Source: a virus
Taxonomy: Duplodnaviria > Caudoviricetes
Direction: 5' to 3' (one strand)
Length of the DNA stretch: 64,000 nucleotides
IMG/VR virus record: IMGVR_UViG_2524614578_000001
Location: 1 to 64,000 of that record
Part shown: positions 21,294 through 45,885 of the stretch, piece by piece
Layout of the letters: every line of letters begins with the position of its first letter
How positions within the stretch are numbered: the first letter of the stretch is position 1
Notes under the pieces: model-generated
Databases searched by the model: none
What the model saw: only the letters and a program-made list of their open reading frames with translations
Told to the model about the DNA's origin: nothing
Made by a program: the position numbers and the translations under genes

Positions 21294-21362
21294 CGGGCCA
21301 CCCGTAGACGCACAGCCGCCCCGCCCGGAATCCAGGCGGGGCGCAGTTGCGTGCGGGGGGTG

Positions 21363-21788
21363 TCAGGGCACCAAGTCGACCAGGGCCTCGAAGTCATCCA
21401 ACTTGGCACGGCGTTCGGCGATAAGCGTGCGCGCCTCGGCCCTCGTCAACTCGACGAACTCGCCGCAGCCGGTCGCATCCAACGCGAGCACCGGCGCCGT
21501 GCCCCCATCCGCGAACGGATACTGCGACACGAACACCTCCATGTCCGCCAAGCCAGCTCGCGTCGGCAGCCACACCGAATCCGAAGCGTGCGCCACGCTC
21601 TCCAAGTCGCGCGGACCAGCCGCCGCATGATCCGTCGAGCACCACGACGGGCACGGCACCAGCACCACCTCGCCGCGGAATACGGCCGCCGCCACCCTGG
21701 AACCATCACCCTGCGACACGTCCACACCGGGGCGCGCGGTGACAGATTCGCAAGGTGACACATTCGCACCCGCCGCTACACTCGGCAT
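21363..21788 (-). CDS. DUF6907-like hypothetical protein
   Basis: VPCPSWCSTDH...H motif; AAGGAGG RBS before the ATG at 21788. Confidence 0.65.
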   Translation of the reverse strand: MPSVAAGANVSPCESVTARPGVDVSQGDGSRVAAAVFRGEVVLVPCPSWCSTDHAAAGPRDLESVAHASDSVWLPTRAGLADMEVFVSQYPFADGGTAPVLALDATGCGEFVELTRAEARTLIAERRAKLDDFEALVDLVP

Positions 21789-21930
21789 CAAAGTCCTCCT
21801 TTGACTGGGACTGGACTTGCTGATCAGCGGGTTGCAGCCCGCTGGTTTCCTCAGCGGCCGGGTTTCGTGCAGCCACACGAAGCGCCCGGCCGCTGTGCTG
21901 TCTCAGACTGTAGAGCCGATCGCAACCTTC

Positions 21931-22022
21931 GTGGGGTGCCCGATTGTCCGGCGGGGTGCCCATCGTGTCGGATCGGCCCCCGGAACCTGCCCGATCGTCC
22001 GGTGGGGTGCCCGATTGTCCGG
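21931..22022. repeat. 21-bp direct repeat GTGGGGTGCCCGATTGTCCGG (21931, 22002) plus partial copies
   Basis: Read directly; partial copies at 21953 and 21988. Confidence 0.85.
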
Positions 22023-22025
22023 GCG

Positions 22026-22802
22026 TCAGAACCGGTAGCGCAGCGCGTACAGGTGGCCGGCCTTCGCCATGACCGTCGCCTCAATCGGCCGGTCCTCGTC
22101 CGTCAGCACCACTCGCAGGGTGCGCAGTACCGGGACCTGGCGCGGCAGCAGCAGCGCCTCGTATTCCTCGTGCGTCGGCTCCTCCGCTGTCACCTCGTCC
22201 CGTGTCTGCCGCGGCGGATAGCCCAGGTTTGCGAGCAGTGTCGGCGTACCGCCCTTGATCTTCTTGAACTCCATCATCGCCGTGCCCCGCGCCAACTCCA
22301 GCGGATAGAACGACTTGACCAGCTCACACGGATCCGGGTCGAAGCTGAGCAACTGCTTCCGCAGCAGCGCCCGTTCACCGTCACCCAGATCGAGAGCCGC
22401 TCTGACGTCCGCGGGCGGCACTGCCTCCTTCACCTCCAGCAACTGGATCGACGCCTGCTTCCCCTGCTTCTTCGCCTCCGTCAGCCACCGGTACGGCGCC
22501 CCCTCCTCCGCCGGCTTCGAATACGCCTCCGGCGTCAGCAACTCCCGGCGGGCCTCCAGCACATACACACCCGACCCCGGACGGCCATGCACCAACTGCT
22601 CGTCCTTCAACAGTCGCAACGCCCGCTGCACCGTCGCCGACGAGGTGCCGAACCGCTTCATCAACGTGTCGGTACTGGGTAGCTTCGCCCCGGGCGGCAG
22701 GTCGCCGGCGAGGATTTCGCGGCGCAGGTCGGCGGCGATCTGTTCGTGATCGGGGCGCGGGTCGAGGTCGTCTGCGGTGGTTCGCCTGGCACGGTCCGAC
22801 AC
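22026..22802 (-). CDS. GntR/HutC-family regulator with UTRA domain (KorSA/TraR-like)
   Basis: QIAADLRREILAGDLPPGAKLPS...TVQRAL..L..EQLV..RPGSGVYV plus a UTRA C-terminus. Confidence 0.9.
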   Translation of the reverse strand: MSDRARRTTADDLDPRPDHEQIAADLRREILAGDLPPGAKLPSTDTLMKRFGTSSATVQRALRLLKDEQLVHGRPGSGVYVLEARRELLTPEAYSKPAEEGAPYRWLTEAKKQGKQASIQLLEVKEAVPPADVRAALDLGDGERALLRKQLLSFDPDPCELVKSFYPLELARGTAMMEFKKIKGGTPTLLANLGYPPRQTRDEVTAEEPTHEEYEALLLPRQVPVLRTLRVVLTDEDRPIEATVMAKAGHLYALRYRF

Positions 22803-22807
22803 GGGGC

Positions 22808-23344
22808 TCAGCCCACTTCCATCTCGTAGCGGAGGCGCCGCGTCGCCGCGGCGGTGGTCATGATCTCGGCTTGGAACACGGTGCCGTCGGCGTCCCGGTT
22901 GCTCCGATACAGGGTGATTATCGGTTCCCCGGCGTCCATGTCGAGCGCGGCCCGGGTCTCTTCGTCGGGCATGTCGGCGACGACGTCTTCGGTGACCGAG
23001 GCGGTGGTGTAGCCGAGGCTGGCAAGCGCCGTGATCGCCCCGCCCTTGATCTTGCGCGGCTCGGCGAGGTCCGTGTCGGCGGCGATCCACAGCGGGTAGT
23101 AGGAAGTGGCGATCTCCATGGGTGCGTCATCGAGGTAGACGATGCGACGCCGCGCCACCACCGGCTGCCCCTCGTCGATGCCGAACGCGTCAGCCACGAA
23201 CGCCGGCGCCTGCACATGGCCCACGTGGTCGAGCCGGTTCGTGCCTCGCGCCCCGTGCGCGGCGGCCTCCTGCGTCCACGCATCGGCTTGTCCGGCGGTA
23301 CTCGGCGTGAGGTAGGGCGTCGATCTGCTGACCCAGTTACCCAC
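22808..23344 (-). CDS. Stand-alone UTRA-domain protein (no HTH)
   Basis: RRRIVYLDDAPMEIATSYYP...KIKGG, paralogous to the neighbour's UTRA; GAGGAGG RBS before the GTG at 23344. Confidence 0.8.
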   Translation of the reverse strand: MGNWVSRSTPYLTPSTAGQADAWTQEAAAHGARGTNRLDHVGHVQAPAFVADAFGIDEGQPVVARRRIVYLDDAPMEIATSYYPLWIAADTDLAEPRKIKGGAITALASLGYTTASVTEDVVADMPDEETRAALDMDAGEPIITLYRSNRDADGTVFQAEIMTTAAATRRLRYEMEVG

Positions 23345-23511
23345 GGGCACCTCCTCTCTGCTGCTGGTCATCGAACCTTGTCGCTTCTGCGTTCAAGGTT
23401 AGCGGCGGAGTCGAGGGCACCTCATGCCATGGAAAGCTTGCTACCTTTTCGGGAAGGCGATAAGGTTGCGAACGTTCGACCAACCGACCTCGACACCGAA
23501 GGAGGGCGCGG

Positions 23512-23745
23512 ATGCCGCTGCCCAAACGACTGCCGACGCTCTCCGTGAAGGAAGCGGCCGCCGCGCTCGGCGTCCACATCTCCACCGTCTACCGCTGGGC
23601 CGAACTCGGCGACCTGCCCGTCGTCCGCTACGGCAGCGAACCCAGCCACGGACGCCGCGGCTCAGAGATCCGCATCCCCGAACACGTCATCGCCGACCGC
23701 CTCCGCCGAGGCCCCGTCGTCGAACCCGCCCCCACCCCCGCCTGA
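23512..23745 (+). CDS. Second excisionase-like HTH_17 protein
   Basis: LSVKEAAAALGVHISTVYRWAELGDLPVVRYG...IRIP. Confidence 0.8.
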   Translation: MPLPKRLPTLSVKEAAAALGVHISTVYRWAELGDLPVVRYGSEPSHGRRGSEIRIPEHVIADRLRRGPVVEPAPTPA

Positions 23746-23817
23746 CAAAACGCAGGCGGCCCCGGACGCAGCGACGCAACCGCTGGCCGGGGCCTGGTCC
23801 CCCTAGGAGGGATTGAG

Positions 23818-25110
23818 ATGAAGCGTACTGTCCTCTTCGACTTCGAGAACGCGCCCGCCCCGAAGCCGTTCACCGCCGCGACCCGGGTCGCGCTGCGCGC
23901 CGAGTGGCTGGCCGCGAAGGACCGCCGGGATCTGTCCACCGGCCGGGACATCATCCGCGTCGCGAAGATCCACGACGAGGCGTGGCCGGACGAGGCCAGC
24001 CTGTACGACCAGATCACCGGTCGCGTTACCGAGTACGAGCAGATCGCCGAGGCCGCCTGATGGCCGCCCGGACCGAGGCTGTCGTGACGGCCGCGGTGGC
24101 GGTGCTGTCCTATGTGGTCGCCGTGATCGTGGGCTACACGGTCGCCTCCTACGGCCTGCGCACCCCGGTGCCGCACCTTGCCGCACTGGGCACGACGATC
24201 CTGACGTTCACCGTCGCCTCGAAGCTGGCCGACGCCTGGCTCGACAGCCGCAAGGCGAAGGCGGGTGAGCAGTGATGTCGCGCTACCTGGAAGAGGCCGC
24301 CGCTCTGCTGCGGAAGTCGGCGGAGACGAACGAGCGGGACAACACGGGTTATGACGGCCTCCTGATGAAGGGTCGCGAACGGATCGCGGGTCAGTTCGCG
24401 ACGCTCGCGGCGATCGACAAGGGCCTGCTGCCTGCCGAGCTGACCGAGGCCGTGCTCGACGCCATCCGCAAGGCGGGTGGCCGTGATGGCTGAGCCGGAG
24501 CCGGAGCACGGGCGGACGCGGGATGGCCAGGGGGAGAAGGCCCCGCCGGATCGCCGGACCCCAGGTAAGTCCCTGTAGATCCCCTGACGCTTCTGCGCCA
24601 ACCAGCCCTGCCGTCATCGGGGTTGGCGGGCGTGGTGGGGCCAGGCCACTGGATGCGCCACCCCTGATCGAGAGCCGGACGGACGGGCCGGACATCGACG
24701 ACCGAGAGGAACTGATGGATATGGCGGACACCGAGACCACCACCGAGACGGCCAAGGCCGCGCCTGCGGCCGAGGCGGCGGGGCCGTCGACTGCGCTGGC
24801 GACGCTGCCGACGTGGCAGGCCGTGACGGCACAGCAGCCCGAGGAGACCGCGGGGCAGGCGGCTGCGCACCTGTCGCCGCTGTCGGCGTTCCAGCCGGGG
24901 CGGGTGAACATCTGCACCGAGTACCAGATCGCAGTGATCGACGGGACGTCGGTGTCGGCGCATCTGAAGGCGGGGCTGCAGCACATGCGGGAGGCCGCGG
25001 ACCAGGTGGCTGCGGGTTCACCCGAGCACGCGGGCCGGACATCGTCTGCGCTGCGGCAGGTTCGGCAGGAGCTGGACCGCATCGCCCGGACTCTCAACAT
25101 CGGCTACTGA
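23818..25110 (+). other. Small CDSs of the transfer operon: 23818-24060, 24060-24275 (two TM segments), 24272-24493, 24715-25110
   Basis: RBSs and stop-start overlaps; no family recognised. Confidence 0.6.
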
Positions 25111-25204
25111 GCGGCGGCTGACCGCTGCCTACGTCGCCCCGGCCGAGACCGGGGCGGCAAGGGGACCGGCCAGCCGACTGGACTACATCAACAAGGAGGA
25201 CGGA

Positions 25205-25636
25205 ATGGCGGGCGACCGCGAGATCAGGGATGAAGCGCGGCTGATGGCCGACGTGTCGGTCACGAGTTTCGGGTTCCTGCACGATGCACCACCGGAGGCG
25301 CACCTGCTGCTCGACGTGCGGCAGCACTTCCGTGACCCGCACGTGAATCCGGAGCTGCGCGAACTGACCGCCAACGACGCGCCGGTGCAGGACGCCGTGA
25401 TGAGCACACACGGCATCCCGGAACTGATCGGCGCAACTGTGGTTGCCGCCCGCGCCTTCCTCGACGGCCCGTCAACAGGCACGGTGCGCATCGCCGTTGG
25501 CTGCGCCGGGGGCCGGCACCGTGCTCCCGTAGTCGCATCCGCAGTAGCCGAGCGGCTCACCGAGCCACGGCTCCGGATCGCGCTGAGGCACCGCGACATG
25601 GCCCTGCCGGTCGTGGAGCGGGGTGACGGGTCATGA
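25205..25636 (+). CDS. RapZ C-terminal-domain-like protein
   Basis: VTSFGFLH...LLDVR.HFRDPH...IAVGCAGGRHRA. Confidence 0.78.
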   Translation: MAGDREIRDEARLMADVSVTSFGFLHDAPPEAHLLLDVRQHFRDPHVNPELRELTANDAPVQDAVMSTHGIPELIGATVVAARAFLDGPSTGTVRIAVGCAGGRHRAPVVASAVAERLTEPRLRIALRHRDMALPVVERGDGS

Positions 25637-26274
25637 TGCGCCGTCCTGCCTCTGTCGTGGCGTGGCTGCTGCTCGCAGTCATCGCGTTGAAGGCGCCGGG
25701 CCTGCTGGGCGCGGCACTCAACGGCACCGTCTCGGCTGGCCGTTGGGTGCTGACTGCCCCGGGCGGCACCGCGGTCCTCGTCGCTGCTCTCGCCGTGACT
25801 CTCGTGTGGTGCGCCGCCGTGCGACCCGCCCCGACCCGCGTGAGGAGGTGGGCCTGATGACGTACGTCCTCATCGTTCTGTCGCTGCTGGCGATTACCGC
25901 TCTCGTCGGCTTGACGATCTTCGCGCTTAGTTATCCGATCCGCCGCCGCTGACCGCCAGGGAGGTCGTCATGCGCACCTACTACGTCTGGTCCATCGAGA
26001 TCGTCCTGCCGGGCGAGGGCGTCTTCGAGGCGGCCTCCACCCTGGCCGCCCCCGTGCCGATCTCCGAGGCCGGGATGCGGCAGGCAGTCGTCGAGGGCAT
26101 CGCCGACAAGCAGCACTGCAAGCCAACGAGCCTCGTCGTCGTCCGCTTCACCTACACCGAACTGCCCGCCCTGACCGCTCCGGAAGGTGCCTGATGCGTG
26201 CCCTGTACCTGCTTGCCATCGCGTGGCCGCTGATCCTCGGCACCTACCTGCTTGGCAGTCACCTCGCTCACTGA
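25633..26274 (+). other. Small CDSs, mostly membrane peptides (Spd-like): 25633-25857, 25857-25952, 25970-26194, 26194-26274
   Basis: TGATG couplings; hydrophobic peptides MTYVLIVLSLLAITALVGLTIFAL and MRALYLLAIAWPLILGTYLLG. Confidence 0.6.
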
Positions 26275-26299
26275 CCGCACTCACACATCCGAGAGGACG

Positions 26300-27364
26300 A
26301 TGACCGTGACCAGCACCCCGCAGGATGGCACCCCGCCCGTCCTGGGCGACTGGCGACCCATAGGGGTCGCGCAGCAGTCGGCCACGCCTGCGCCCGTGCA
26401 GCCCGCCACGAAGGAGCCTCGCAACCTGGGCGCCCGCTTCGGCAGCTTCATGCGTGACACCGGTCTGGGGTCGGTCGGCTTCGCCCTGGTCCTCGTCGTC
26501 GCCGTCGCCGGATGGTCCGCCAGCTTCATCGGCCTCCACGACTTCGCAACGAAGCACATGGGACTCAACGAGGACCAGGGCTGGCTGGTGCCGATCACGT
26601 TCGACGGCGCCCCTCTCGGCCTGACGCTCGTCGTGTACCGGGCCAGCGTCAACGGCCGGGGTGCAGCGATCTGGCGGCTGCTGATCTTCGCGTTCACGGG
26701 CCTGTCGTCGTGGATCAACTGGCAGCACATCGACGACCCCACCGGCCGGTGGATCGCCAGCTTCATGCCCCCTGCCGCGGTGATCCTCTTCGAGGGTTTG
26801 ATGTCGGAGGCCCGTGCCTCTGCGTCGGATCGGCCGCGGCTGCACCCGCTTCGCTGGCTCATCGACCGCGAGGGCACATGGAAGATCTACCGCGCCTACA
26901 TCCTCGGCATCGAACTGCCCGAGCACCTCACCCGCACCTCCGGCAAGGTCGTCGACAGCCGCCAGAAGCAGCCCGCCAAGAAGGAGCCGGCCGCCGCCAA
27001 GACGGCCGCCAACAGCGAGCGCCAAGTCGCCGGTTCTGGCGCCGCCAAGGAGCGCCAAGAAGCGACCGCCAAGACGGCCCCCGCTGGCGCCAAGAAGGCC
27101 GCCCCCGGGAAGCGCCAGCAGACCGCCAAGAAGGGCCGCCAGTCGGCCGCCAAGACGCGCCGCTCGATGGACGAGTGGGTGGAGCTCGGTACCCCCGTGT
27201 TCCACGCCGAGTTCAAGCGGCTGCGCCGTCAGCCGACCGGAACCGAGTTCGCGAATGCCCTGGCCGAAGCCGGACTCGGCAAGCCGGGCGCATCGACAGC
27301 GAAGAACATCCGCACCGAAATCCTCGACCGCGAACCGCTCCCGGCTCTCACCGACCCCAGCTAG
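26300..27364 (+). CDS. DUF2637/SpdB-like multi-TM spread protein with a C-terminal HTH-like domain
   Basis: Four TM segments (SASFIGL, WLVPITFDG, SSWINWQH, MPPAA..LFE), RLHPLRWLID, basic linker. Confidence 0.75.
   Translation: MTVTSTPQDGTPPVLGDWRPIGVAQQSATPAPVQPATKEPRNLGARFGSFMRDTGLGSVGFALVLVVAVAGWSASFIGLHDFATKHMGLNEDQGWLVPITFDGAPLGLTLVVYRASVNGRGAAIWRLLIFAFTGLSSWINWQHIDDPTGRWIASFMPPAAVILFEGLMSEARASASDRPRLHPLRWLIDREGTWKIYRAYILGIELPEHLTRTSGKVVDSRQKQPAKKEPAAAKTAANSERQVAGSGAAKERQEATAKTAPAGAKKAAPGKRQQTAKKGRQSAAKTRRSMDEWVELGTPVFHAEFKRLRRQPTGTEFANALAEAGLGKPGASTAKNIRTEILDREPLPALTDPS
26960..27154 (+). repeat. Cluster of nine CGCCAAG heptamers plus variants within the spd-like gene
   Basis: Copies at 26974, 26995, 27020, 27043, 27053, 27067, 27088, 27124 and 27148, in two reading frames. 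Confidence 0.75.
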
Positions 27365-27391
27365 ATCCGCACCCAACCGAAGGAGAACGGC

Positions 27392-27955
27392 ATGCCCAGT
27401 CAGAACACCGCTGTGTTCGACATGTACAAGAACCGCCAACGGGACGCCACAGCCCAGGGCACTGGCGGGCAGGGCTTCCTCCCGCCACAGCCCCGGACGA
27501 GGACGCCGAAGAACGTCAACAAGTCCAAGTCGCTGAACCCCGCTCTGAACGGCGCCATCAACATCAACATCAACAAGGGTGGTGGTGGCGCCACGAAGAA
27601 GGGCGACAAGGCGACGCCCGGCAGCGACTTCATGTCGAACGAGGACATCCGCGCCTACGCCGAGTACGGCCGCAAGCAGGCCCGGCAGCGCGCGGTCGAG
27701 CGGGCCCTCGACGCGGAGATGCTGGAGGGCCGGCTGCGGAACATCCCTAACACCCTGGGGAACATGTCCGGCGCCCGTGCCCGCGCCCGCCGTGTGACGC
27801 GGTGGCTGAAGCGGATCGCGCAGGCCGAGAAGCTGATCGCCAAGTGGTACAGCGCCCTGTACAGCGGTTTTGAGCGCGAGTACGAGGCCGAACTGATGAA
27901 GATCGGCAAGGGGCGGCAGCAGCAGAAGCCCCAGTCGAAGTTCGGGTGGCGCTGA
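27392..27955 (+). CDS. traA: Streptomyces plasmid transfer protein TraA-like
   Basis: Upstream of traB; FMSNEDIRAY...ARARARRVTRWL...FEREYEAEL. Confidence 0.65.
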   Translation: MPSQNTAVFDMYKNRQRDATAQGTGGQGFLPPQPRTRTPKNVNKSKSLNPALNGAINININKGGGGATKKGDKATPGSDFMSNEDIRAYAEYGRKQARQRAVERALDAEMLEGRLRNIPNTLGNMSGARARARRVTRWLKRIAQAEKLIAKWYSALYSGFEREYEAELMKIGKGRQQQKPQSKFGWR

Positions 27956-27956
27956 C

Positions 27957-28106
27957 GTGCTCAACGCCTGGTGGGTCATCGGAGCCGCGCTGCTGTTCGC
28001 GGCGTGGCTTCGGTGGCAGTTCTACATCCTCTTCGCTGACGGCTTGATCATCGCCGTCGTCCTGTTCCTGATCTACCTCGTGGTCGCAGCCGCCGTAAAC
28101 GGCTGA
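27957..28106 (+). CDS. 49-aa two-TM membrane peptide (not in the ORF track)
   Basis: VLNAWWVIGAALLFAAWLRWQFYILFADGLIIAVVLFLIYLVVAAAVNG fills the traA-traB gap. Confidence 0.6.
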   Translation: MLNAWWVIGAALLFAAWLRWQFYILFADGLIIAVVLFLIYLVVAAAVNG

Positions 28107-28166
28107 CACCCATCTGACCTGCATTGACACCTCGCTGACACCCGGAGTGACACCGTGGCTGACACC
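28104..28166 (+). repeat. Phased TGACACC repeats upstream of and overlapping the traB start (clt-like)
   Basis: Copies at 28104, 28125, 28136, 28148 and 28160, plus TGACCTG at 28115; 10-12 bp period. Confidence 0.85.
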
Positions 28167-30158
28167 ATCAAGAACGACGTGAAGAAGGGGCTCGCGTCCC
28201 CTCATGCGCGGCCGTGGCTCGCCCTCGTCGGCGAGGTACCCGCCACCTTCGCCGCCCACATGGCTTGGGGCGACCAGCCCCTCGTTGCGGCCGGCATGGC
28301 TACCGCCGCCGGGGTCCTGACCGCCGCCACCTGGTGGGCGGGCAAGGACACCAGCCCGCAGCGGCGTGCGCACGCGACCGCCACCACCGCCGCGGCGACC
28401 GGCTACCTCACCTACGCCTCCTTCACCGACCCGTTCGGTGTGACCCAGTTGACGTGGCTTGCCCTCGGTGGCGGCACTGCTGCCGCGAGCTGGAACATCC
28501 GCAAGACGATGCGCATCAACCCCGAGACCAGCAACAACGGTGCGGGCTCCGAGGAAAACGGCATCCTCCCGAAGTCGCTAGGCAAGGCCAAGGCGATGCT
28601 GCGGGCACAGCCGAAGATCGAACCGAACAAGGTCACGCTGCCGCTGAAGCTCAACGAGATGACCACCGAGCAGTTCGGCAACCGTCTCAAGGACGCAGCG
28701 GTCGAGGCTGGCGTCTCCAACAACGCCCTGCGCCTCATCAACGACCCCGACAACGCAGCCTGGACGGACCTGGTCATCACCCCCGAGGACATGCTGAAGA
28801 AGTCCCTGCGCTGGCCCGGCCCGACCAACGGCGGCGGCTCCATCACCGAGCCCATCACCGTCGGCCCCTACCAGGACGGTGCCCCGGCGCAGCTCTGGTT
28901 TCCCGCGCACGAGCCGACGAAGATGTCCAAGGAACAGGCTCGCAACGCCACGCACTTCCTCGCCGCCGGCATGAACGGCTCGGCGAAGTCGACTGGCATC
29001 TCGGTTGCCATCGCTGATGCGCTGACCAGGCGCGACGTCATCGTGTGGGGTGTCGACCCGTCGAAGGGCATGCAGACGTTCGCCCCGTTCCTGCCGTACA
29101 TGGACTGGGTGGAGATCACCAAGTCCGGCGGCGACGACATGATCGACGCCCTGTCGCAGGTCATCACCGCCCGCGCTGACGCGCTCGGCCGGAACGGCTA
29201 CAAGAACTGGACCCCGCAGGCGTTCCACCAGCTCGGCATGCCCTACATGATCGTGTGGATCGAGGAGGCCGCGAAATTCTTCCGCGAGGGCACCGAGATG
29301 GAAGGACTGGTCATGGAGGCCCGTTCCGCGGGGATCTCCGTCATCATCTCCCTCCAGCGCCCGTCGGCCACATCGATGCCCACTGACGTGCGGGAACAGC
29401 TCGGCGGGGTGCTGTGCTTCGGCGTCAAGGAGTCCACCACCGCCGACATGGCCCTCCCCGAAGACGTGCGCGACGCCGGCGCCCGCCCGGAAGCGTGGGA
29501 GAACCGCAAGCCCGGCTACGCCTACCTCGTCGCCCCCGGGGTGCCGGAAGACCGGTACGCGATCCCGCTGCGCACCTACATGATCGACGACGAGCAGATC
29601 TCCGACGCGCTCGCCGCCGCACCCCGCGTCCACGCCGACCCGATCACGGCTGCCGCCGCGGGTGAGGCATACGAGAACCGCACCACCTACGAGTCCAACA
29701 CCCCGCTGACCAGCATCAACACGGAGGCAGTCATGAGCAAGGAGGACCAGGCGCGCAAGGAGGAGGCCCTGCTGGAACGGCAGGTCGAGCGTGAGGTCGC
29801 CGCCCGCTTCGACGACGGCGAGGACAACGACGTGTCCGGCATCGACCCCGACGAAGAGATCCCCGCCGTCGAGTCCGACAAGGTGTGGACGTTCGCCGAG
29901 GCCGACAGCACCCCGGAGAAGACCGCCGACGAGGCCATGAACGAGCTGCTCGCGATGCTGGAGGAGTACCGGCAGGAGGGCCTGGAGCACGTCGGCCCCC
30001 GCCACTTCCAGCCCTACGGCCGGGAGGGCCGCATCGGCCGCTCCCGCGCTTGGATCAGCGCCCGCCTCAACGAGTTGGCCGACGACGAGGTCCACCTCCA
30101 GGACACCGACGACGCCGGGGTGTACAAGCTGCTCTACCCCGAGATGGCCGCAGCCTGA
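28155..30158 (+). CDS. traB: TraB FtsK/SpoIIIE-family conjugative DNA translocase
   Basis: N-terminal TM region, Walker A GMNGSAKS, Walker B IVWIEEAA, ARSAGISVIISLQRP, C-terminal wHTH RSRAWISARLNEL. Confidence 0.9.
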   Translation: MADTIKNDVKKGLASPHARPWLALVGEVPATFAAHMAWGDQPLVAAGMATAAGVLTAATWWAGKDTSPQRRAHATATTAAATGYLTYASFTDPFGVTQLTWLALGGGTAAASWNIRKTMRINPETSNNGAGSEENGILPKSLGKAKAMLRAQPKIEPNKVTLPLKLNEMTTEQFGNRLKDAAVEAGVSNNALRLINDPDNAAWTDLVITPEDMLKKSLRWPGPTNGGGSITEPITVGPYQDGAPAQLWFPAHEPTKMSKEQARNATHFLAAGMNGSAKSTGISVAIADALTRRDVIVWGVDPSKGMQTFAPFLPYMDWVEITKSGGDDMIDALSQVITARADALGRNGYKNWTPQAFHQLGMPYMIVWIEEAAKFFREGTEMEGLVMEARSAGISVIISLQRPSATSMPTDVREQLGGVLCFGVKESTTADMALPEDVRDAGARPEAWENRKPGYAYLVAPGVPEDRYAIPLRTYMIDDEQISDALAAAPRVHADPITAAAAGEAYENRTTYESNTPLTSINTEAVMSKEDQARKEEALLERQVEREVAARFDDGEDNDVSGIDPDEEIPAVESDKVWTFAEADSTPEKTADEAMNELLAMLEEYRQEGLEHVGPRHFQPYGREGRIGRSRAWISARLNELADDEVHLQDTDDAGVYKLLYPEMAAA

Positions 30159-30291
30159 CACCCACTTGACCTGCGGTGACACCGGCTGACACCTCGCTGA
30201 CATGTCAGAGCGGGTGTCAGCCCCGGTCAGAGGCCGCGGACGCTTAGGTCAACGCGCACGCGCGCGCGAGCTGACACCCCCACCTGACACC
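30156..30291 (+). repeat. TGACACC repeat cluster downstream of traB, candidate clt
   Basis: Copies at 30156, 30177, 30187, 30272 and 30285; variants at 30167 and 30198; inverted copy at 30213-30219. Confidence 0.85.
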
Positions 30292-30345
30292 CCTAGCCCT
30301 GTCAATCGGTACGAACCGCCACAGAACTCACATAAGGAGCACCCC

Positions 30346-30609
30346 ATGGAGCAGGAGTTCAACCCGCCCCGCTACGCCTGGACCGCCTCGACCGTGCAGG
30401 AGGCGAAGGCGATCCTCACTGCCGCACGCGACCTCGTCGACGCGCACATGTCCACGCTCGTGCCCGGCGACATCGGTGATCGGTGGGACGCCGAGAAGGA
30501 GGCGCCGACGACGCTGACCATTTCGCTGGACCTGTCCGGCCTGGTGGAGCAGATCAACACCCGCCGGACCATCGCCAACATGGAAGCCAGTCTCGGGGAC
30601 GGTGCCTGA
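30346..30609 (+). CDS. Hypothetical protein
   Basis: AAGGAG RBS before the ATG at 30346. Confidence 0.6.
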   Translation: MEQEFNPPRYAWTASTVQEAKAILTAARDLVDAHMSTLVPGDIGDRWDAEKEAPTTLTISLDLSGLVEQINTRRTIANMEASLGDGA

Positions 30610-31217
30610 TGCGTACTCCGTGGATGTCCCGCCGGGACCGCCGCCTGTGGCAGTCCGCCAGCACCGTCCCCGACCTCGGCGAGTTGATGGCCCGCTGGCT
30701 CGAAGGCGACCTGAAGTCGTGGCCCGGCTACGCCCCGGGCTACGGCCCCGACGACGAAACCCGGCACCTCGTCCCGACACTGGCCGCACTCAACCGGGCC
30801 GGGGTCCTCACACACGGTTCGCAGCCCGGCCACATGGGGGCCGGCTTCGACGGGGCCTGGTGGTCGCAGCGCGCGGCCGTCAGTGGCTTCGTCGCCGACC
30901 CGTCGCTGTTTCGCGAGCTGCTGTTCGCCGCCGCCGACAACGCGCTGCTGACGCTGGTGACCGGCGGGCAGGAGGCGTACTGGCCGGAGCCGATCCCGGT
31001 GACGACGCGCAACTCGGAGACGGTCACGGACTTCGGCATGCACTTGGGTCGCCGCGACCTGCGCTGCATGTGGCCCACGATCAACGACGAGGCGTTCACC
31101 GCGATCGAGGCAGCGTGGCAGGTCACCATGGTCGCCCCCGGCTTCGGAGCCTTGGGCGAACGCATGTGGCCGGTGCTGGCCACCGCCGTGGAGGAGGCCG
31201 TCGATGTCGCTGCCTGA
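30609..31217 (+). CDS. DUF6919-like protein typical of Streptomyces mobile elements
   Basis: WMSRRDRRLWQSA...LMARWLEG...PGY...LNRAGVLT.GSQPG...QRAAV. Confidence 0.6.
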   Translation: MRTPWMSRRDRRLWQSASTVPDLGELMARWLEGDLKSWPGYAPGYGPDDETRHLVPTLAALNRAGVLTHGSQPGHMGAGFDGAWWSQRAAVSGFVADPSLFRELLFAAADNALLTLVTGGQEAYWPEPIPVTTRNSETVTDFGMHLGRRDLRCMWPTINDEAFTAIEAAWQVTMVAPGFGALGERMWPVLATAVEEAVDVAA

Positions 31218-31656
31218 GCGTCAGATCCATGCGGAGACCGCACCGTTCGCCATGCGCCCGGCCGCACCGGAGGTGTACCGGCCGCAGCCGATCCAGCCCG
31301 TGCCGGAACGCCGCATCGTCGGCTACGAGCGGTACGCCGACGGCCTGCTGCCCGTGTACGAGGTCGTCGCCCCTGTGGAGCGCACCCCCGCCCGCGACCT
31401 CACCCCCCAGCCGCTGATCGACCCGCGGGCACAACTCGTCCTCGCCGGCGGTGTCGGCGCCGGAGCAGCAGGCGCCGGACTCGGCTGGGGCATCGGACAA
31501 GCCTTCACCGGCATCGCGGCCCTGTCCGGCAGCAGCGCCGTCCTGATGGCGCTGCTGCTGCTCCTCCTCGCCAAGTCCCGGAAGCGCGGCACGACCACGA
31601 TCCACGTCACCAACAACAACCGCTGGTGGGGCCACTCCACCAGCCCGATCAAGTAG
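31204..31656 (+). CDS. Membrane protein, Spd-like
   Basis: Gly-rich TM hairpin; C-terminal IHVTNNNRWWG. Confidence 0.65.
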   Translation: MSLPERQIHAETAPFAMRPAAPEVYRPQPIQPVPERRIVGYERYADGLLPVYEVVAPVERTPARDLTPQPLIDPRAQLVLAGGVGAGAAGAGLGWGIGQAFTGIAALSGSSAVLMALLLLLLAKSRKRGTTTIHVTNNNRWWGHSTSPIK

Positions 31657-31665
31657 GAGCCCGGC

Positions 31666-31872
31666 ATGCCGCTTACGTTCCGCAAGAGCTTCCGTGTCCT
31701 GCCCGAGGTGAAGGTCAACCTGGGGCTCAAGTCGTGGTCGGTGACCGTCGGACCCAGCAACGGGCCGAAGCGCACGTTCAGTTCGACCGGCCGCCGCACC
31801 ACATCCATGGACCTGCCCGGCCCGTGGGGCTACCGCCGCACCAGCACCCGGCGGCAGAGGAGGGAGGGCTGA
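31666..31872 (+). CDS. DUF4236-like small basic protein
   Basis: FRKSFRVLP.VKVNL...SWSVTVG...LPG. Confidence 0.7.
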   Translation: MPLTFRKSFRVLPEVKVNLGLKSWSVTVGPSNGPKRTFSSTGRRTTSMDLPGPWGYRRTSTRRQRREG

Positions 31873-32084
31873 TGAAGCGCGGCGACCGCGTGCGGATCAC
31901 CGCAGGTCGACACGAGGGCGAGACCGGCGTGTACATCGACGACTACACCGCGGGCCGCGTCATCCCCGGCATGGCCTTCGAGGACGAGTCGAACGTCCGG
32001 CTCGACGACGGCTCCAAGGCCACCGTCCCCACGGCGAGCCTCGCGCCCGCCACCAAGAACCGGCGGCGCAACCGCGACCGCTGA
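31872..32084 (+). CDS. KOW/SH3-like small protein
   Basis: KRGDRVRITAGRHEGETG. Confidence 0.6.
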   Translation: MKRGDRVRITAGRHEGETGVYIDDYTAGRVIPGMAFEDESNVRLDDGSKATVPTASLAPATKNRRRNRDR

Positions 32085-32111
32085 ACTGTCATCATCGAAT
32101 CAGGAGGAATC

Positions 32112-32603
32112 ATGGGATACGCCTGCTACGAGATCTACCGCAACGGCGAGAAGATCGAGGCCGGCTACGGTGTCGCCACTGCCTGCGAAGAGGACGGCTG
32201 CACCGAGCAGATCGACCGTGGGCTCGCCCACCTGTGCGGCAAGGACCCCGGAGGCGACGAACACGGCTGTGGCGGCTACTACTGCGGCCAGCACCTGTAC
32301 GGCGACAACCAGTGCACCCGCTGCTCCGCCAAGGCGGACGAGGCCAACCGCTGGGTCCACCCCGAGACCGGTGAGGAGTTCGACCTGCGGGACCGGTTCC
32401 TGCCGGCCGGGTCGCGCTACGACGCCCGAGGGACCGTCTGGCAGTACGCAGGGTTCCAGCGTGAGGGCGCGCCGACCCTGGAGCCGATCTATACGAGTGG
32501 CGAGGGCGCGGACGGTCCGTACCGTTCCCTCGCTGAGGGCGAGTGGGAGGACGTCGGCCGCATCGTCTACCGGCAGGTACACGCCGAGACCGCCACCGCA
32601 TAG
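32112..32603 (+). CDS. Cys-rich hypothetical protein
   Basis: AGYGV...C...GC...IDRGL..LCG...GCGGYYCGQHL; AGGAGG RBS. Confidence 0.7.
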   Translation: MGYACYEIYRNGEKIEAGYGVATACEEDGCTEQIDRGLAHLCGKDPGGDEHGCGGYYCGQHLYGDNQCTRCSAKADEANRWVHPETGEEFDLRDRFLPAGSRYDARGTVWQYAGFQREGAPTLEPIYTSGEGADGPYRSLAEGEWEDVGRIVYRQVHAETATA

Positions 32604-32652: not shown

Positions 32653-32685
32653 GAGAGGCCCCGCCCGTGTTGGGCGGGGCCTCTC
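32653..32685. terminator. Bidirectional hairpin between convergent genes
   Basis: GAGAGGCCCCGCCC-gtgtt-GGGCGGGGCCTCTC. Confidence 0.75.
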
Positions 32686-35356: not shown

Positions 35357-35950
35357 ATGGTCAACGGGCCCCGCACCTACCGGAAAACCGACCCGGCCGA
35401 CCGCGCCGCCCGAGCCGCCGTCGTCTTCGACCTGCGCATCGCCGGCAAGTCCTACCGGCAGATCGACACCCTGTCGCAGGACCCCAACGGTCCGACGAAC
35501 GGCCGCCGCATCTCCACCACCACCGCCAAGGAACTCCTCTACGAAGAGGTGGCCCGCCGCATCGACCCGCGAGTCGAGACATGGCGGGCAGTGGAGGCCG
35601 AACGGCTGGAAGGGTCGTTGCAGCGTCTCGATCTGCTCGCAGAGAAGGCGTGGGTCATCCTCGACACTGACCATGTGACGGTGTCGCAGGGCCGCACCTT
35701 CGAGAACATCGCCGACCCAGGCCCGGCGCTGCAAGCCATCGACCGCCTCATCAAGATCGAGGAGCAGCGGCGGAAGATCTCCGAGTCGCTGAGGAAGCTG
35801 TTCGGCGTCGACGCCCCGCAGCAGATTGAGGCCACCATCACCGAGATGACGCCGCAGGACGTGGAACTCCAGGAGTTGCTCAACGAGGCCAAGGCCAAGA
35901 TGGAGGCGCAGCAGGCTCGGCTCCTCGGCAACGGCGGGGAGTCGGCATGA
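35357..35950 (+). CDS. terS: Terminase small subunit (probable)
   Basis: LRIAGKSYRQI HTH, AIDRLIKIEEQRRK..GVDAP; first late gene. Confidence 0.75.
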   Translation: MVNGPRTYRKTDPADRAARAAVVFDLRIAGKSYRQIDTLSQDPNGPTNGRRISTTTAKELLYEEVARRIDPRVETWRAVEAERLEGSLQRLDLLAEKAWVILDTDHVTVSQGRTFENIADPGPALQAIDRLIKIEEQRRKISESLRKLFGVDAPQQIEATITEMTPQDVELQELLNEAKAKMEAQQARLLGNGGESA

Positions 35951-36195
35951 GCCGCACAACGTACGCCGTCGAATCCCTCGTGCCGTCATGGCTGCTGCAC
36001 GACACCGGCTACCGGCAGGCCCTCACCCAGTACCTGACGGATCGCATGGCCGCGCAGGGTGACCAGCCTGACGGGCCCGTGCGCATCCGGCAGGCCGACG
36101 ACTCGGCGCCGCCGCCAGTCGGGATGATCCTGCTGCGTGCCACCGCGGAGACCGAGGACTTCGACGTGGAGGTGCCCGCCGGGGACGGGGTGTGA
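35947..36195 (+). CDS. Hypothetical protein
   Basis: Coupled ORF between terS and terL. Confidence 0.6.
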   Translation: MSRTTYAVESLVPSWLLHDTGYRQALTQYLTDRMAAQGDQPDGPVRIRQADDSAPPPVGMILLRATAETEDFDVEVPAGDGV

Positions 36196-36199
36196 ACCG

Positions 36200-37747
36200 G
36201 TGACCACCGCGGTACGCCCGGCCCCCTACCTGGACGGGTTGGACGCTGAGACGTTCGACCTCAACGCCTACCTCGCCGGCTTCGATCAGCGGCTCCTTGC
36301 CGAGTCGGAAGGGCGGCACATCCTCACCCGCCTCGATCCGCTGCTGTTCAGCCTTCTCTACCTCCGGCACCACCTCAAGGATTCCGACGGGCACATCACC
36401 TTCTCCGATGCCCACTTGGACTGGTGCCGGGCCGCCCGCGACTGGGTCAAGCCGGTGATCGCGCCCGGTGTCGAGCGGGACGCCTGGGTCGCTCCGCGGA
36501 ACACCGGCAAGAGCACGTGGTGGTTCCTCATCCTCGTGCTGTGGGCTGCGGCTCACGGCCATGTGAAGTTCGTGGCTGCGTTCGCCAGTTCGGCGACACA
36601 GGCGGAGACGCACCTCGGCACGTTCAAGCGGGAGATCGACACCAACCCGGTGCTGCGGCGGGACTGGCCCGAGTTGTGCGCGCCGGCGAAGCGGCCGTCA
36701 GGGGCGAACGTTGGCGACACCCAGAACATCTACATCGCCCGCTCCGGCTTCGTGTTCGCCGCGAAGGGCATCGACTCCAGCTCCCTCGGCATGAAGGTCG
36801 GCGAGCAGCGACCCGACGTGATCCTCTTGGATGACGTCGAGCCGGACGAGTCGAGCTACAGCATCGACCTGGCGCGCAAGCGGCTCACCACGCTGCTCGA
36901 CTCGATCCTGCCGCTTAACGTGTACGCGAGGGTGGTGCTGTCCGGGACGGTGACGATGCCGGGCAGCATCGTGCACCAACTGGTGAAGCATGGCCGCGGC
37001 GTTGAGACCGCGGACTGGGTGCGTGAGGAGTCGTTCCGGGCGCACTACTCGGCGCCGATCGTGAAGCGCGACGACGGGACGGAGCGCAGCCTGTGGCCGG
37101 CGAAGTGGCCGCTCGCCTACCTCAAGTCGATCGAGCACACCAGGTCGTTCGCGAAGAACTACGCCAACGACCCGATGGGCGCCGACGGCGACCTGTGGAC
37201 CCCCGACGTGTACCGGTATCCGGGCCCCGAGGGGCCGGACGGCATCACGCACATGATGCTCAGCATCGACCCGGCGACGACCGCGAAGAAGGGCAGCGAC
37301 TTCACCGGTCTCGCGGTGGTGTCGTGGTCGGCGCAGCACAAGCGGTGCACCGTGTGGGACTCGACGGGGGTGAAGGTCCAGCCGGGCCCGCTGCTGCGGG
37401 AGCGGGTGTTGGCGATCCTCGACGAGCACCCGCAGATCGGCCTGGTGCTGGTGGAGATCAACCAGGGCGGCGACACGTGGCAGGCGATCCTCCACGACCT
37501 GCCGGTGCGGGTGAAGACGGTGACGCAGTCGGAGAACAAGTTCGTCCGCGCCGAGGGCGTGTTGCAGCTCTACCAGCGGGGTCGGGTTCTTCATGCCCGG
37601 AAGCTGCGGGAGTTGGAGGAGCAGCAGTGCGCGTTCCCGAAGGCGCCGCACGACGACCTTGTCGATGCCGTGGGTTCGGCGGTCCGTCGGTTCATCCCGA
37701 CCGCCCCGCGCAAGGTTTCTAAGGTGACGAGTCAGACTTACCTTTGA
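36200..37747 (+). CDS. terL: Terminase large subunit
   Basis: APRNTGKST Walker A, ILLDDVE Walker B, SIDPA...SDFTG, HDDLVDA nuclease motifs. Confidence 0.93.
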   Translation: MTTAVRPAPYLDGLDAETFDLNAYLAGFDQRLLAESEGRHILTRLDPLLFSLLYLRHHLKDSDGHITFSDAHLDWCRAARDWVKPVIAPGVERDAWVAPRNTGKSTWWFLILVLWAAAHGHVKFVAAFASSATQAETHLGTFKREIDTNPVLRRDWPELCAPAKRPSGANVGDTQNIYIARSGFVFAAKGIDSSSLGMKVGEQRPDVILLDDVEPDESSYSIDLARKRLTTLLDSILPLNVYARVVLSGTVTMPGSIVHQLVKHGRGVETADWVREESFRAHYSAPIVKRDDGTERSLWPAKWPLAYLKSIEHTRSFAKNYANDPMGADGDLWTPDVYRYPGPEGPDGITHMMLSIDPATTAKKGSDFTGLAVVSWSAQHKRCTVWDSTGVKVQPGPLLRERVLAILDEHPQIGLVLVEINQGGDTWQAILHDLPVRVKTVTQSENKFVRAEGVLQLYQRGRVLHARKLRELEEQQCAFPKAPHDDLVDAVGSAVRRFIPTAPRKVSKVTSQTYL

Positions 37748-37793
37748 TTTGAAGGTCAATCGCTATGATGGCCTTGACGAAAGGTGGGCGGCT

Positions 37794-39335
37794 GTGTCAG
37801 TAGAAGACCTGATGGACGGCATCGCCGAACTCGACGACGCCCGGCCCGAGTATCGGCAAGCGCAACGCATGTACGACGGCACCGTCCCCGAGGTCTTCGC
37901 CTCCTCCCGCATTCGCGCCCGCCTCGACGCCGAAGGCGTCGACTTCCGCCTGAATTTTGCGAGGACCCCTGTCGATGCGGTGATCGACCGGCTGGAGATC
38001 GCCGCTATCACCGCCGATGACGACGAGGCGAACCAGGCCATCACCGACGTGTGGAACGCGAACCAGCTCGACCTGGAAGCCCCCGACATCCACCGCAAGG
38101 CATGTTCGCTGGGCGACGCCTACGTCATCGCTCTGCCGATCGAAGACGACGACGGCACCGTGTCCGGCATCGAGATCCACTACAACTCGCCGCTCACCGT
38201 CCGTGCGATCTACTCCGCGGAGAACCCGCGCGAGGTCGACTACTACATCAAGCGCTGGTGCCAGCGCACATCACTCGGCGACGTGCAGCGCGCCGAGCTG
38301 TACTACCTGGACGGCACCATCGAACGGTGGACCACGAAGGTCGGCTCGAAGGGCGAACAGGCGCAGGAGTGGGGCCACTGGCTCGCCGCGCCCGACGAAG
38401 GGGAGGCCGAGGACAAGGAGTCGTGGCGGTACGACACCGGCTGGGGCGAGCCGCCCGTCTTCCACTTCCGCACCGACCGGCCCTATGGGGCGCCGGAGCA
38501 CCGCGGCGCGTACGGCCCGCAGAACGCGATCAACAAGCTCAGCGCAACCCACATGGGCACCGTCGACTACCAGGGCTTCCCGCAGCGTTGGGCACTGACC
38601 GAGGCCGCCACCACCGACACCGGCGACCTGGACCCCGGCGACTGGGACGACCTCGACGACAGCCCGGCCGATGAAGGCGACCCCTCCTCGTTGAAGGCCG
38701 GCCCCGGTGAACTGCTGACGCTGCGCGGCATCCGTGCAACGGGCCAGTACGAGGCGGCCAAGCCCGATATCTTCCTCGACCCGATCACCTTCTATATCCG
38801 GGCAATGGCGCAGATCACCACCACTCCGGTCACGATGTTCGACGACCAGACCGGCCAGGAGATATCCGGCGAGAGCAGGCGCCAGAAGGACGCCCAGTTC
38901 GTCAAGAAGATCCGCAACCGACAGCTCAGCTTCGGCGGCACATGGCGCCACCTGTTCACCTTCGTCTTGAAGCGGCTCGGCTTCGAGGCCGCCGTCGTCG
39001 ATGTGCGGTGGGCGCCCCCGGCCACCGTCGAGGACAAGACGGGCTGGGAGACCACGGCCCTCAAGATTGCGAACGGGGTGCCCCGTCGCCAGGCGCTGCT
39101 GGAGGCTGGCTATCGGGACGAGCAGGTCGACGAGTGGCTGTCCGACGTCGACGAGGCTGAACTCGCCCGCCGTGTCGCGGTGCTGGCCGCGCTCGCCGAC
39201 TCTGCGCAGAAGCTATCCGCCGCTGCGGCGCTGGGAGTCGTCACCACCGACCAGGTGCAGAGCCTGCTGGGCGACGTGTTCGCCGACGTCGAGAACCTGG
39301 GCCCGGCCGGCGAGTTGGAGGCGTCGGATGCCTGA
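37794..39335 (+). CDS. Portal protein (SPP1 gp6-like)
   Basis: Follows terL; NFARTPVDAVIDRL, PVFHFR, QNAINK, FPQRW, SGES. Confidence 0.88.
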   Translation: MSVEDLMDGIAELDDARPEYRQAQRMYDGTVPEVFASSRIRARLDAEGVDFRLNFARTPVDAVIDRLEIAAITADDDEANQAITDVWNANQLDLEAPDIHRKACSLGDAYVIALPIEDDDGTVSGIEIHYNSPLTVRAIYSAENPREVDYYIKRWCQRTSLGDVQRAELYYLDGTIERWTTKVGSKGEQAQEWGHWLAAPDEGEAEDKESWRYDTGWGEPPVFHFRTDRPYGAPEHRGAYGPQNAINKLSATHMGTVDYQGFPQRWALTEAATTDTGDLDPGDWDDLDDSPADEGDPSSLKAGPGELLTLRGIRATGQYEAAKPDIFLDPITFYIRAMAQITTTPVTMFDDQTGQEISGESRRQKDAQFVKKIRNRQLSFGGTWRHLFTFVLKRLGFEAAVVDVRWAPPATVEDKTGWETTALKIANGVPRRQALLEAGYRDEQVDEWLSDVDEAELARRVAVLAALADSAQKLSAAAALGVVTTDQVQSLLGDVFADVENLGPAGELEASDA

Positions 39336-40338: not shown

Positions 40339-40386
40339 CCCGCGACGGGCCACGCGCCACCCGCAACCCCGAGATGGGAGCACCCG

Positions 40387-41208
40387 ATGAACAACAACAC
40401 CGACCTCACCGAACCGCAGCCCACCCCCCGCCGCACACTCAGCCTGCCGCCCGCCACCGTCCTCGGGTACGTGGGCGACCGCCCCGTCTACAACATCGCC
40501 GGTGGCGCCGACGACGACAGCGGCTTCGACGTCGACGACGGCCACAACAACGGCGAAGGGGGTGACGACGAGGGCGAGGACTCCGACTCCGGCTCCGAGA
40601 ACGACGGAGACGGCGGCGACGGCAAGGCTGAGGCGGAGAAGCCCAAGCCGAAACCGCCCGCCACCAAGCCCAAGCCCGCAGCCAAGGACGACGACAGCGG
40701 CAGCAGCGGCGACGGCGCAGACGAGTACACACCCCCGTCCGCCGCCGAGTGGAAGCGCACCCAGGCCGCGCTGAAGAAGGCCAACGAGGACGGCAAGCGG
40801 CACCGGCTCCGCAACCGCGAGCTCGAAGAAGCCGCCCGCTCCACCGAGTCCGACGCGGAGAAGGCCGTCCGTGAGGCCCGCGAGGAAGGCGAAGCCCGCT
40901 TCCGGAAGCCGCTCGTACGCGCCGCCGCACGGGCCGCGCTCGCCCAAGCCGGCCTCAACGGCGACACCGACCGCGTCCTCAAGCTCGTCGACCTCGACGG
41001 CCTGTCCGTCGACGACGACGGCGACGTCATCGGCCTCGACGCTGAGGTGAACAAGCTGAAGGACGAGTACCCGGAGTTCTTCCAGGTGCCGGCGAAGCCG
41101 AAGCCCAAGGTGCGCCCGACGGCGGCAGACCGGCAGCCCGCCAAGGAGAAGCCGAAGTCTTCGGCGGAGCAGCACGCTCAGAAGATTCTCAACCGCTTCG
41201 CCAGTTGA
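40387..41208 (+). CDS. Capsid scaffolding protein
   Basis: Acidic, coiled-coil; ANEDGKRHR, LKDEYPEFF; upstream of the capsid gene. Confidence 0.8.
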   Translation: MNNNTDLTEPQPTPRRTLSLPPATVLGYVGDRPVYNIAGGADDDSGFDVDDGHNNGEGGDDEGEDSDSGSENDGDGGDGKAEAEKPKPKPPATKPKPAAKDDDSGSSGDGADEYTPPSAAEWKRTQAALKKANEDGKRHRLRNRELEEAARSTESDAEKAVREAREEGEARFRKPLVRAAARAALAQAGLNGDTDRVLKLVDLDGLSVDDDGDVIGLDAEVNKLKDEYPEFFQVPAKPKPKVRPTAADRQPAKEKPKSSAEQHAQKILNRFAS

Positions 41209-42650: not shown

Positions 42651-42653
42651 CGC

Positions 42654-44591: not shown

Positions 44592-44592
44592 C

Positions 44593-45153: not shown

Positions 45154-45166
45154 ACGGACACCACCC

Positions 45167-45882: not shown

Positions 45883-45885
45883 TCG

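Follow-up and report, generated by a model that had tools for sequence, protein, structure and literature searches.

A candidate conjugative prophage with a TraB transfer cassette in front of its terminase genes

The locus and its transfer module

The IMG/VR record IMGVR_UViG_2524614578_000001 is a virus sequence of 73,106 bp (provirus class, 91% complete), of which the first 64 kb are hereafter called the window. Between its early genes and the terS/terL genes, the window carries a transfer module in which a GntR-UTRA gene is divergent from a series of small genes, a DUF2637 gene, traA, and traB (Table 1). A preliminary description had read this arrangement as an integrative phage that carries its own transfer module, and the gene assignments on which it relied were recovered by profile searches. 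These included the GntR/UTRA pair divergent from an operon with an Xis-like (HTH_17) gene, the DUF2637/Spd-like protein, TraA, and many small membrane proteins, represented by six small hydrophobic open reading frames (ORFs) at 24060-24275, 25633-25857, 25857-25952, 26194-26274, 27957-28106, and from 31204. The Pfam families found in the module were GntR with UTRA, UTRA alone, HTH_17, RapZ_C, DUF2637, DUF6919, DUF4236, and KOW.

The record is ordered as int, repressor, xis, early and replication genes, module, terS/terL, head, tail, a glycosyltransferase cassette, and lysis genes. The int-repressor-xis, head, long-tape-measure tail, and lysis genes were all intact, which is the gene set of an integrating temperate siphophage. 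The structural and lysis proteins aligned over their full length with those of 13 relatives sharing the same head, and no frameshift or internal stop was found, as the preliminary description had judged from the apparent lack of disruption; five stop-containing alignments in this comparison fell outside or at the edge of the window ORFs. A decayed prophage was rejected on these grounds. A genome too large to be packaged was also rejected, since the capsid is 52-60% identical to those of cultured Streptomyces phages with genomes of 68-82 kb; other homologues package 15-34 kb.

TraB and the TGACACC repeats

TraB matched the NF041214 profile with an E-value of 4e-234 and 778.8 bits, just below the cut-off of 800. 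The profile searches proposed in the preliminary description matched DUF2637 and GntR/UTRA, whereas the Pfam FtsK_SpoIIIE profile did not reach its cut-off on TraB. In an AlphaFold model built from 14 sequences (predicted template modelling score 0.44, modest quality), FtsK motors were the ten best PDB matches (Foldseek, E 3e-14). The Walker A motif (GMNGSAKS, residues 272-279), the Walker B motif, which terminates in E370-E371, and a QRP motif were conserved in 14 TraB homologues, and an Ala precedes the Lys of Walker A in seven of the 14 aligned. The N-terminus was modelled as four helices at low confidence and aligned to the predicted membrane region of the pWTY27 protein. At the C-terminus, the model contained a winged helix (helix-helix-hairpin, 591-659; predicted local distance difference test 42-76), and its recognition helix, SRAWISARL vs SRPWVSARL in pWTY27, also matched those of pSN22 and pJV1. 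Over its full length, TraB was 36% identical to the pWTY27 transfer protein, and 33-36% across pWTY27, pSN22, and pJV1. The full-length TraB with Walker motifs and a winged helix that had been read from the sequence was thus recovered. Additionally, a gene of about 143 amino acids that resembles the C-terminal winged helix of TraB lies directly 3' of traB in L021 (1662-2093) and 13 other elements; it is absent from the window and could encode a second clt-binding protein.

The clt-like repeats noted earlier proved to be copies of TGACACC. The record contains 23 copies, of which 11 lie in two clusters, one at each end of traB, and the count in the window was 21 against 10.5 expected. Each of the clusters at 28104-28166 and 30156-30291 was matched in 0 of 200 resamples, and at least three copies occurred just 3' of traB in 23 of the 26 members of the TraB clade described below. 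The transfer protein of pWTY27 was reported to bind, in vitro, a set of four TGACACC repeats located where its gene ends, and the repeat region to be required for transfer (PMC3583192). The downstream array of the window has the same motif and the same position as this clt, and by analogy the TGACACC arrays flanking traB are predicted to be clt. The repeat array at 21937-22032 was not supported as a clt, since 17 of 200 resamples reached it and it showed no clustering in relatives.

Distribution and evolution of the TraB clade

TraB searches of viral contigs and genomes yielded a close clade at 54-71% identity. In a quick tree of 53 proteins, from which two split copies were left out, the clade formed one side of a branch with a value of 100 in the Shimodaira-Hasegawa-like approximate likelihood ratio test. 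The 26 elements mapped, including the window and pCQ4, comprised 22 phage genomes, with a terminase 3' of the cassette in 21 and a portal gene in the 22nd; because 15 of the 26 are viral-database records or the window itself, the phage share is biased upward. L011 and L015 were assigned neither as phage nor as non-phage. Several unrelated head types surround the cassette across the clade. For example, G001 and G007 have TraB proteins that are 93% identical and heads that differ. The traB gene was full length in 24 of the 26 elements and split in G005 and L108.

In a sample of 401 Streptomyces genomes, a TraB match was found in 47 and a member of the close clade in five, located in three phages (one of them the centre of the sample), one actinomycete integrative and conjugative element (AICE), and one 2.6-kb contig. 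As a control, a TraB group at about 40% identity was found near head genes at one of ten loci (tblastn, hallmark set), which argues that the pairing of TraB with phages is not a by-product of crowded islands. For TraB, the first 14 of the 23 close pairs gave a ratio of nonsynonymous to synonymous substitution rates (dN/dS) of 0.13-0.29; within one head type, the values were 0.06-0.27 for TerL and 0.11-0.35 for the capsid. These ratios indicate that TraB is under purifying selection.

Recurrence of pumps in front of terS

The survey of related prophages proposed in the preliminary description recovered the module at this position, both within individual prophages bounded by att-type repeats and in complete records. 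Att-type repeats enclosed an integrase, the cassette, and virion genes in G002 (46 bp at a tRNA-Val end, L025:13876 and L028:14867; 61 kb), G004 (150 bp; 67 kb), and G025 (114 bp at 87%; 65 kb). Similarly, repeats enclosed an integrase, a pump, and virion genes in G258 (76 bp; 73.3 kb), G087 (108 bp; 67 kb), and G393 (19 bp; 73.6 kb), of which G258 and G393 match the window in head type and size. Two complete records with terminal repeats, G413 and G417, contain an integrase and a pump. The att repeat search returned none in G062 or in the trimmed records of G006, G007, and G009, the candidate in G001 was limited to 24 bp at 92%, and no integrase was recognised in G062. Homologues of the window integrase occurred in 19 of the 401 genomes, with a tRNA nearby at one of 11 loci scanned. 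G004 (L100:3717-3866) and G025 (L087:5005-5117) are integrated at the same target, namely the 3' end of a protein-coding gene that resembles uppP.

A TerL search identified 64 viral loci; the 19 retained had TerL identities of 68% or more and no less than 7 kb of sequence upstream. An FtsK-type pump occupied the same slot in 12 of these close-head loci, or in 11 of 17 when two apparent duplicate pairs were counted once. The 12 pumps were called by the Pfam cut-off (five), by a profile built without them (five, E 1e-12 to 1e-24), by blastp (one), and by a Pfam-positive twin (one). TerL matched in six of the 401 genomes, and the three closest chromosomal copies all had a pump. The slot pumps span several clades and are mostly 20-38% identical to one another. 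Of 16 other-clade pumps tested, eight had their own downstream array of a different motif (reached in at most 1 of 200 resamples), one was borderline, and seven had none. In G062, a chromosomal locus with the head type of the window, the pump was 79% identical to gp71 of pZL12, presumably the tra gene that was tested in that element. The cassette probably behaves as an exchangeable unit of a pump and its docking site in a fixed slot before terS. Selection for this function in phages is indicated most strongly by the repeated filling of the slot with unrelated pumps that have putative docking repeats of their own.

In the pump-less G419, G427, G415, and L135, the slot is taken by a DUF2637 or Spd-like gene. 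Behind it lies a NERD nuclease gene (G419, L135) or genes of 130-270 amino acids that could be placed in no known family, and the set may be a cassette for another kind of spread or exclusion. In the complete record G429, which has a distant head (TerL 54%), an 828-amino-acid pump-like gene (G429:45419) lies after the tail genes and not before terS.

Relationship of the module to its phage

The preliminary description had recognised no second integrase, Rep, or att-like flanks for the module, and the searches agreed. The best repeat flanking the module was 14 bp (E 0.067) and not convincing. Neither an AICE Rep nor a second integrase was found within the module by Pfam on its ORFs and profile searches, and the left-end integrase was the sole PF00589 match in the whole record. 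The RepSA, RepAM (DUF3631), and Prim-Pol profiles had no match in the record, the RepSA and DUF3631 searches being without a positive control; the ParB_N and AAA_31 (ParB, ParA) profiles had none either, with positive controls. The GC content at third codon positions (GC3) was 0.887 in the module, 0.869 in the early genes, and 0.884 in the late genes. Contigs of one DNA run, possibly the source of the record and hence not independent evidence, showed even depth over the module and its flanks; a weak 20-base joint from 18719 to 34456 in these contigs was not counted.

A separate inserted element was therefore rejected, with flanking repeats of at most 14 bp and no AICE Rep, Par, or second integrase found in the module, and the module is native to phages of the window type. 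A plasmid-phage identity for the element was also rejected, on the unmatched ParA and ParB and the provirus class. Of the genomic findings that the preliminary description had named as speaking against an integrative phage with its own transfer module, each that could be tested came out in favour of that interpretation, which is supported on this comparative basis.

Other features of the module and the record

The record was trimmed at gene ends, from the stop codon of the integrase on the left to the start of an XRE gene on the right. Features are listed in Table 1.

Table 1. Annotated features, with positions in the window.
Feature	Position	Strand	Remarks
Tyrosine integrase, prophage (414 aa)	1..1245	-	PF00589 E 1.5e-15; record begins at its stop codon
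XRE-type repressor, likely immunity repressor	1639..2043	-	HTH_3
Excisionase-like HTH_17 protein of phage	2530..2760	+	E 8e-4; 62-71% homologues adjoin close integrases
Phage replication initiation protein	10923..12032	+	phrog_3171 E 2e-50
Hairpin	21308..21352	.	Inverted repeat between last early gene and convergent left end of module
DUF6907-like small protein	21363..21788	-	PF21848 E 8e-4, below cut-off; start is the ATG behind AAAGGAGG site
Three imperfect 25-bp direct repeats	21937..22032	.	TGCCCGAT core; behind gntR
GntR+UTRA regulator	22026..22802	-	Pfam
UTRA-only protein	22808..23371	-	Pfam
Divergent control region	23372..23511	.	Promoter-like TTGCTA-17-TAAGGT, kept in relatives; AACCTTG/CAAGGTT inverted repeat
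Excisionase-family DNA-binding protein, first transfer-operon gene	23512..23745	+	HTH_17 E 3.5e-10; TIGR01764 above cut-off
Run of small ORFs, several hydrophobic	23818..26274	+	Includes RapZ C-terminal-domain protein, 25205-25636
DUF2637 membrane protein	26300..27364	+	PF10935 E 1e-34
TraA	27392..27955	+	NF041213 94.2 bits, cut-off 80
Hydrophobic ORF, 49 aa	27957..28106	+	
Upstream TGACACC array, predicted clt part	28104..28166	+	5 copies
TraB, FtsK-type dsDNA translocase, 667 aa	28155..30158	+	C-terminal winged helix
Downstream TGACACC array, predicted clt	30156..30291	.	6 copies, 1 inverted
Downstream small genes	30346..32603	+	Conserved 87 aa, DUF6919, 150-aa membrane protein, DUF4236, KOW, 163 aa
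Perfect 14-bp hairpin	32653..32685	.	Inverted repeat; module right end
terS, terL, portal, MuF-like, scaffold, HK97-type major capsid	35357..42261	+	
Connector, tail tube, chaperone, tape measure (1566 aa), Dit-like and Tal-like tail genes	42363..56364	+	
Amidase endolysin and SLT transglycosylase	62308..63988	+	Holin-like genes from 64043, past window

The GntR-UTRA protein, predicted from its domains to be a Kor/TraR-type repressor, was 29% identical to the pSN22 GntR over 149 amino acids and 30% to gp80 of pZL12. The UTRA-only protein encoded directly upstream could be its sensor or anti-repressor partner, and the pair also occurs in G007, L105, L108, G417, G424, and G258 despite a changed pump clade. 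The TTGCTA-17-TAAGGT element is presumably a promoter, as judged from the HrdB consensus. The DUF2637 protein is a predicted Spd-type spread or pore partner, as assigned from this domain and its position; a DUF2637 gene also precedes traA-traB in pWTY27, with no pairwise similarity between the two proteins. A stand-alone RapZ C-terminal-domain gene was found within the transfer operon in nine of the 26 mapped elements. No Nudix gene was recognised in the window, and many relatives have one on the left side of the cassette.

Elsewhere in the window, a homologue of the XRE-type repressor adjoins close integrases in G125 and G157, and direct repeats of 19-20 bp occur at 3283-3600 within an early ORF of 186 amino acids. 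A C5 DNA methylase at 14216-15406 is divided between a 146-amino-acid ORF and the following ORFs; a similar two-part methylase lies near an AICE in G315, and a single ORF of 427 amino acids in G413. A full-length DNA polymerase III beta clamp is encoded at 15669-16799. Between the tail and lysis genes, three glycosyltransferases, a methyltransferase, and an NAD-dependent epimerase (56614-60900, minus strand), 63-82% identical in G424, are likely to act in surface or virion glycosylation. Past the window and outside the module, a second tyrosine-recombinase-like gene (67779-68852) lies 3' of the lysis genes, a position held by the same gene or a serine resolvase in relatives; pCQ4 and pZL12 also have one, and it may resolve circle dimers. 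An Rfam scan of the sequence gave no match, and an ARAGORN call at 31973-32066 was discarded, as it lies within an ORF and lacks a valid anticodon.

Proposed mechanism and alternatives

By analogy with plasmid systems, we consider it probable that the genome of this integrating, Streptomyces-type siphophage holds a complete TraA-TraB-clt cassette with which TraB pumps the double-stranded DNA circle into touching hyphae, a second route that needs no virion. The GntR-UTRA regulator would keep the operon silent in the lysogen, to be released by contact or by a metabolic cue. For excision, copying, and re-integration, functions that AICEs encode themselves, the element would rely on the integrase, Xis, and initiator of the phage, and the initiator at 10923..12032 is predicted to replicate the excised circle. 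After excision, TraB would bind the TGACACC repeats through its winged helix and would move the unprocessed double-stranded phage circle to touching hyphae, Spd-type proteins would aid spread in the recipient mycelium, and transfer would proceed without the lytic programme. In established TraB/clt systems, TraB reads clt with its winged helix, the double-stranded DNA is moved unprocessed, and a GntR protein represses the operon. TraB was described as assembling on clt and moving double-stranded DNA, with help from Spd proteins in spread and in the formation of pocks (PMC4170104). Transfer of pSAM2 was reported to depend on its prior excision and replication (PMC3218068), with control by the GntR-type KorSA and a block on redundant transfer by the Nudix-type Pif (PMC3218068, PMC2440964).

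Several observations weigh against mating by this phage. The hydrophobicity of the TraB N-terminus is weak, with just one stretch that attains a hydropathy of 1.4, and the host flanks and att sites of the element fall outside the trimmed record. The pump is dispensable, as it is absent from the slot in seven of the 19 close-head relatives. Two of the 26 clade members are not phages, namely G291, a canonical Prim-Pol AICE that led us to reject a clade exclusive to phages, and G005, an AICE-like remnant. The dN/dS values were 0.35-0.52 between the window TraB and its four nearest relatives and 0.20-0.71 for TraA, both from distant pairs in which dS is likely underestimated at a GC3 near 0.9. Lastly, cultured phages, among them 89 records of the Jay2Jay/Wofford type, encode FtsK-like genes, with no repeat array in the three checked, and a pump in a phage therefore need not mean mating.

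This last point leads to the principal alternative, that the pump works within one mycelium, moving phage DNA across cross-walls to adjacent compartments during induction or after infection, with mating between strains rare or absent. We regard this as unlikely, if by no means negligible. Systems of Spd and TraB have been described as spreading DNA across septa (PMC4170104, PMC2440964), many cultured Streptomyces phages carry FtsK-like genes outside any transfer operon, and DUF2637/Spd-like genes are kept in the slot of three pump-less relatives. However, the cassette of the window is the whole plasmid-type set of TraA, TraB, clt, and GntR, the nearest named relatives of its TraB are on conjugative plasmid-phages, and three FtsK genes of cultured phages that were tested lacked a downstream clt-like array.

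Transfer between hyphae by an excised circle also has to be weighed against the idea that the cassette acts mainly while integrated, its clt lying in the chromosome and TraB mobilising the prophage with flanking host DNA. The operon has its own regulator, separate from the phage repressor, and the mobilisation of chromosomal markers has been ascribed to TraB acting on clt-like sequences, with AICEs described as chromosome-mobilising (PMC4170104, PMC2440964). The need of pSAM2 for prior excision and replication (PMC3218068) speaks against this idea, which we hold to be very improbable. Equally little credence is given to a leftover fragment of an AICE or plasmid, brought into the prophage by recombination and now passive or decaying. 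The occurrence of the TraB clade in G291 and G005, the split traB of G005 and L108, and a slot that is variable and at times empty would fit such an origin. Set against it are the same slot under unrelated heads and its repeated, independent filling by other pump clades that bring repeat arrays along, the intact frames in 24 of 26 elements, dN/dS well below 1, a GC3 like that of the flanking genes, the missing AICE Rep, integrase, and flanking repeat in the searches of the module, and the rarity (one of ten loci) of the distant TraB group near head genes.

Phages and conjugative elements are usually viewed as separate routes for DNA; their pairing here is common among integrated Streptomyces prophages and was rebuilt several times with unrelated pumps. 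Tentatively, and with some doubt, a large and mostly uncultured group of temperate Streptomyces phages may consist of true conjugative prophages with a dedicated, swappable slot for a pump and its clt, which would alternate among integration, lysis, and mating, gain entry as naked DNA to hyphae that lack the receptor, and drag along host chromosome when integrated. Should the cassette function, lysogeny could spread through a lawn without donors being killed and without need of surface receptors, and a prophage-borne chromosomal clt could add to the large-scale gene exchange in antibiotic producers.

Comparison with known systems

Among AICEs, pSAM2, SLP1, and pMEA300 resemble the window in combining an integrase, an excisionase, an initiator, TraB, and a GntR repressor in one integrated element, and G291 falls in the same TraB clade. 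In contrast, the record has head, tail, and lysis genes and spans 73 kb, where one survey gave AICE sizes of 11.9-36.2 kb, and its initiator is phage-type (phrog_3171), whereas AICEs use RepSA, RepAM, or Prim-Pol. Of the plasmids, pWTY27 shares the clt motif and position and the upstream DUF2637 gene, and pSN22 and pJV1 share the divergent GntR before traA-traB; unlike the window, all three are 11-14 kb without tail or lysis genes, and pSN22 and pJV1 lack a TGACACC array.

Cultured Streptomyces phages such as Gilgamesh, Mischief19, and those of the Jay2Jay/Wofford type encode FtsK-like translocases of about 600-640 amino acids with N-terminal hydrophobic stretches, in Gilgamesh near an integrase and terL. 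These genes are at most 25% identical to the window TraB over part of the length, and unlike the window they have no TraA or GntR annotated next to them. A pump query from L134 matched 89 cultured Streptomyces phage records, the Jay2Jay/Wofford type included (about 36% among the matches listed). Such genes were reported without a function in two sources (bioRxiv 2024.02.16.580700, PMC13587820), and the Samy paper mentions neither TraB nor FtsK. No cultured phage in INPHARED matched the window TraB over 80% of its length. The literature searched, which did not extend to most subscription journals, gave no description of TraB-bearing prophages that integrate in Streptomyces.

The preliminary description had named pZL12 as a precedent. 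Its layout (phage ZL12, NC_013420) is indeed the same, with a GntR gene divergent from small genes and a membrane protein and an FtsK-type gene before terS/terL. Unlike the window, pZL12 is extrachromosomal, carries ParAB, and has a pump of another clade without a tblastn match to the window. It was called a singleton among actinophages (PMC7157519), plasmid-phages were described as conjugating and forming particles (PMC4170104), and pSLE1, a relative of pZL12, was suggested to be able to integrate (PMC4487206). The nearest precedents, much closer than pZL12, are pCQ4 (NC_019307) and pCQ3 (NC_013449), the best plasmid matches of the window TraB (60.7% and 60.0%, full length). Both share the order of GntR, small genes, traA, traB, a DUF6919-like gene, and then terminase, portal, and capsid, with TGACACC at both ends of traB. 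Their head genes are distant from those of the window (TerL 25%), and they are circular replicons with ParA/ParB, as seen in pCQ4, where the window has int-repressor-xis. The cassette would work in the manner of the TraB-clt system of pWTY27 and pSN22. By membership, the element is neither an AICE nor a plasmid-phage, and it fits best beside the pZL12/pCQ4 type as a variant that integrates; what is new relative to this precedent is integration in place of ParAB, together with its prevalence.

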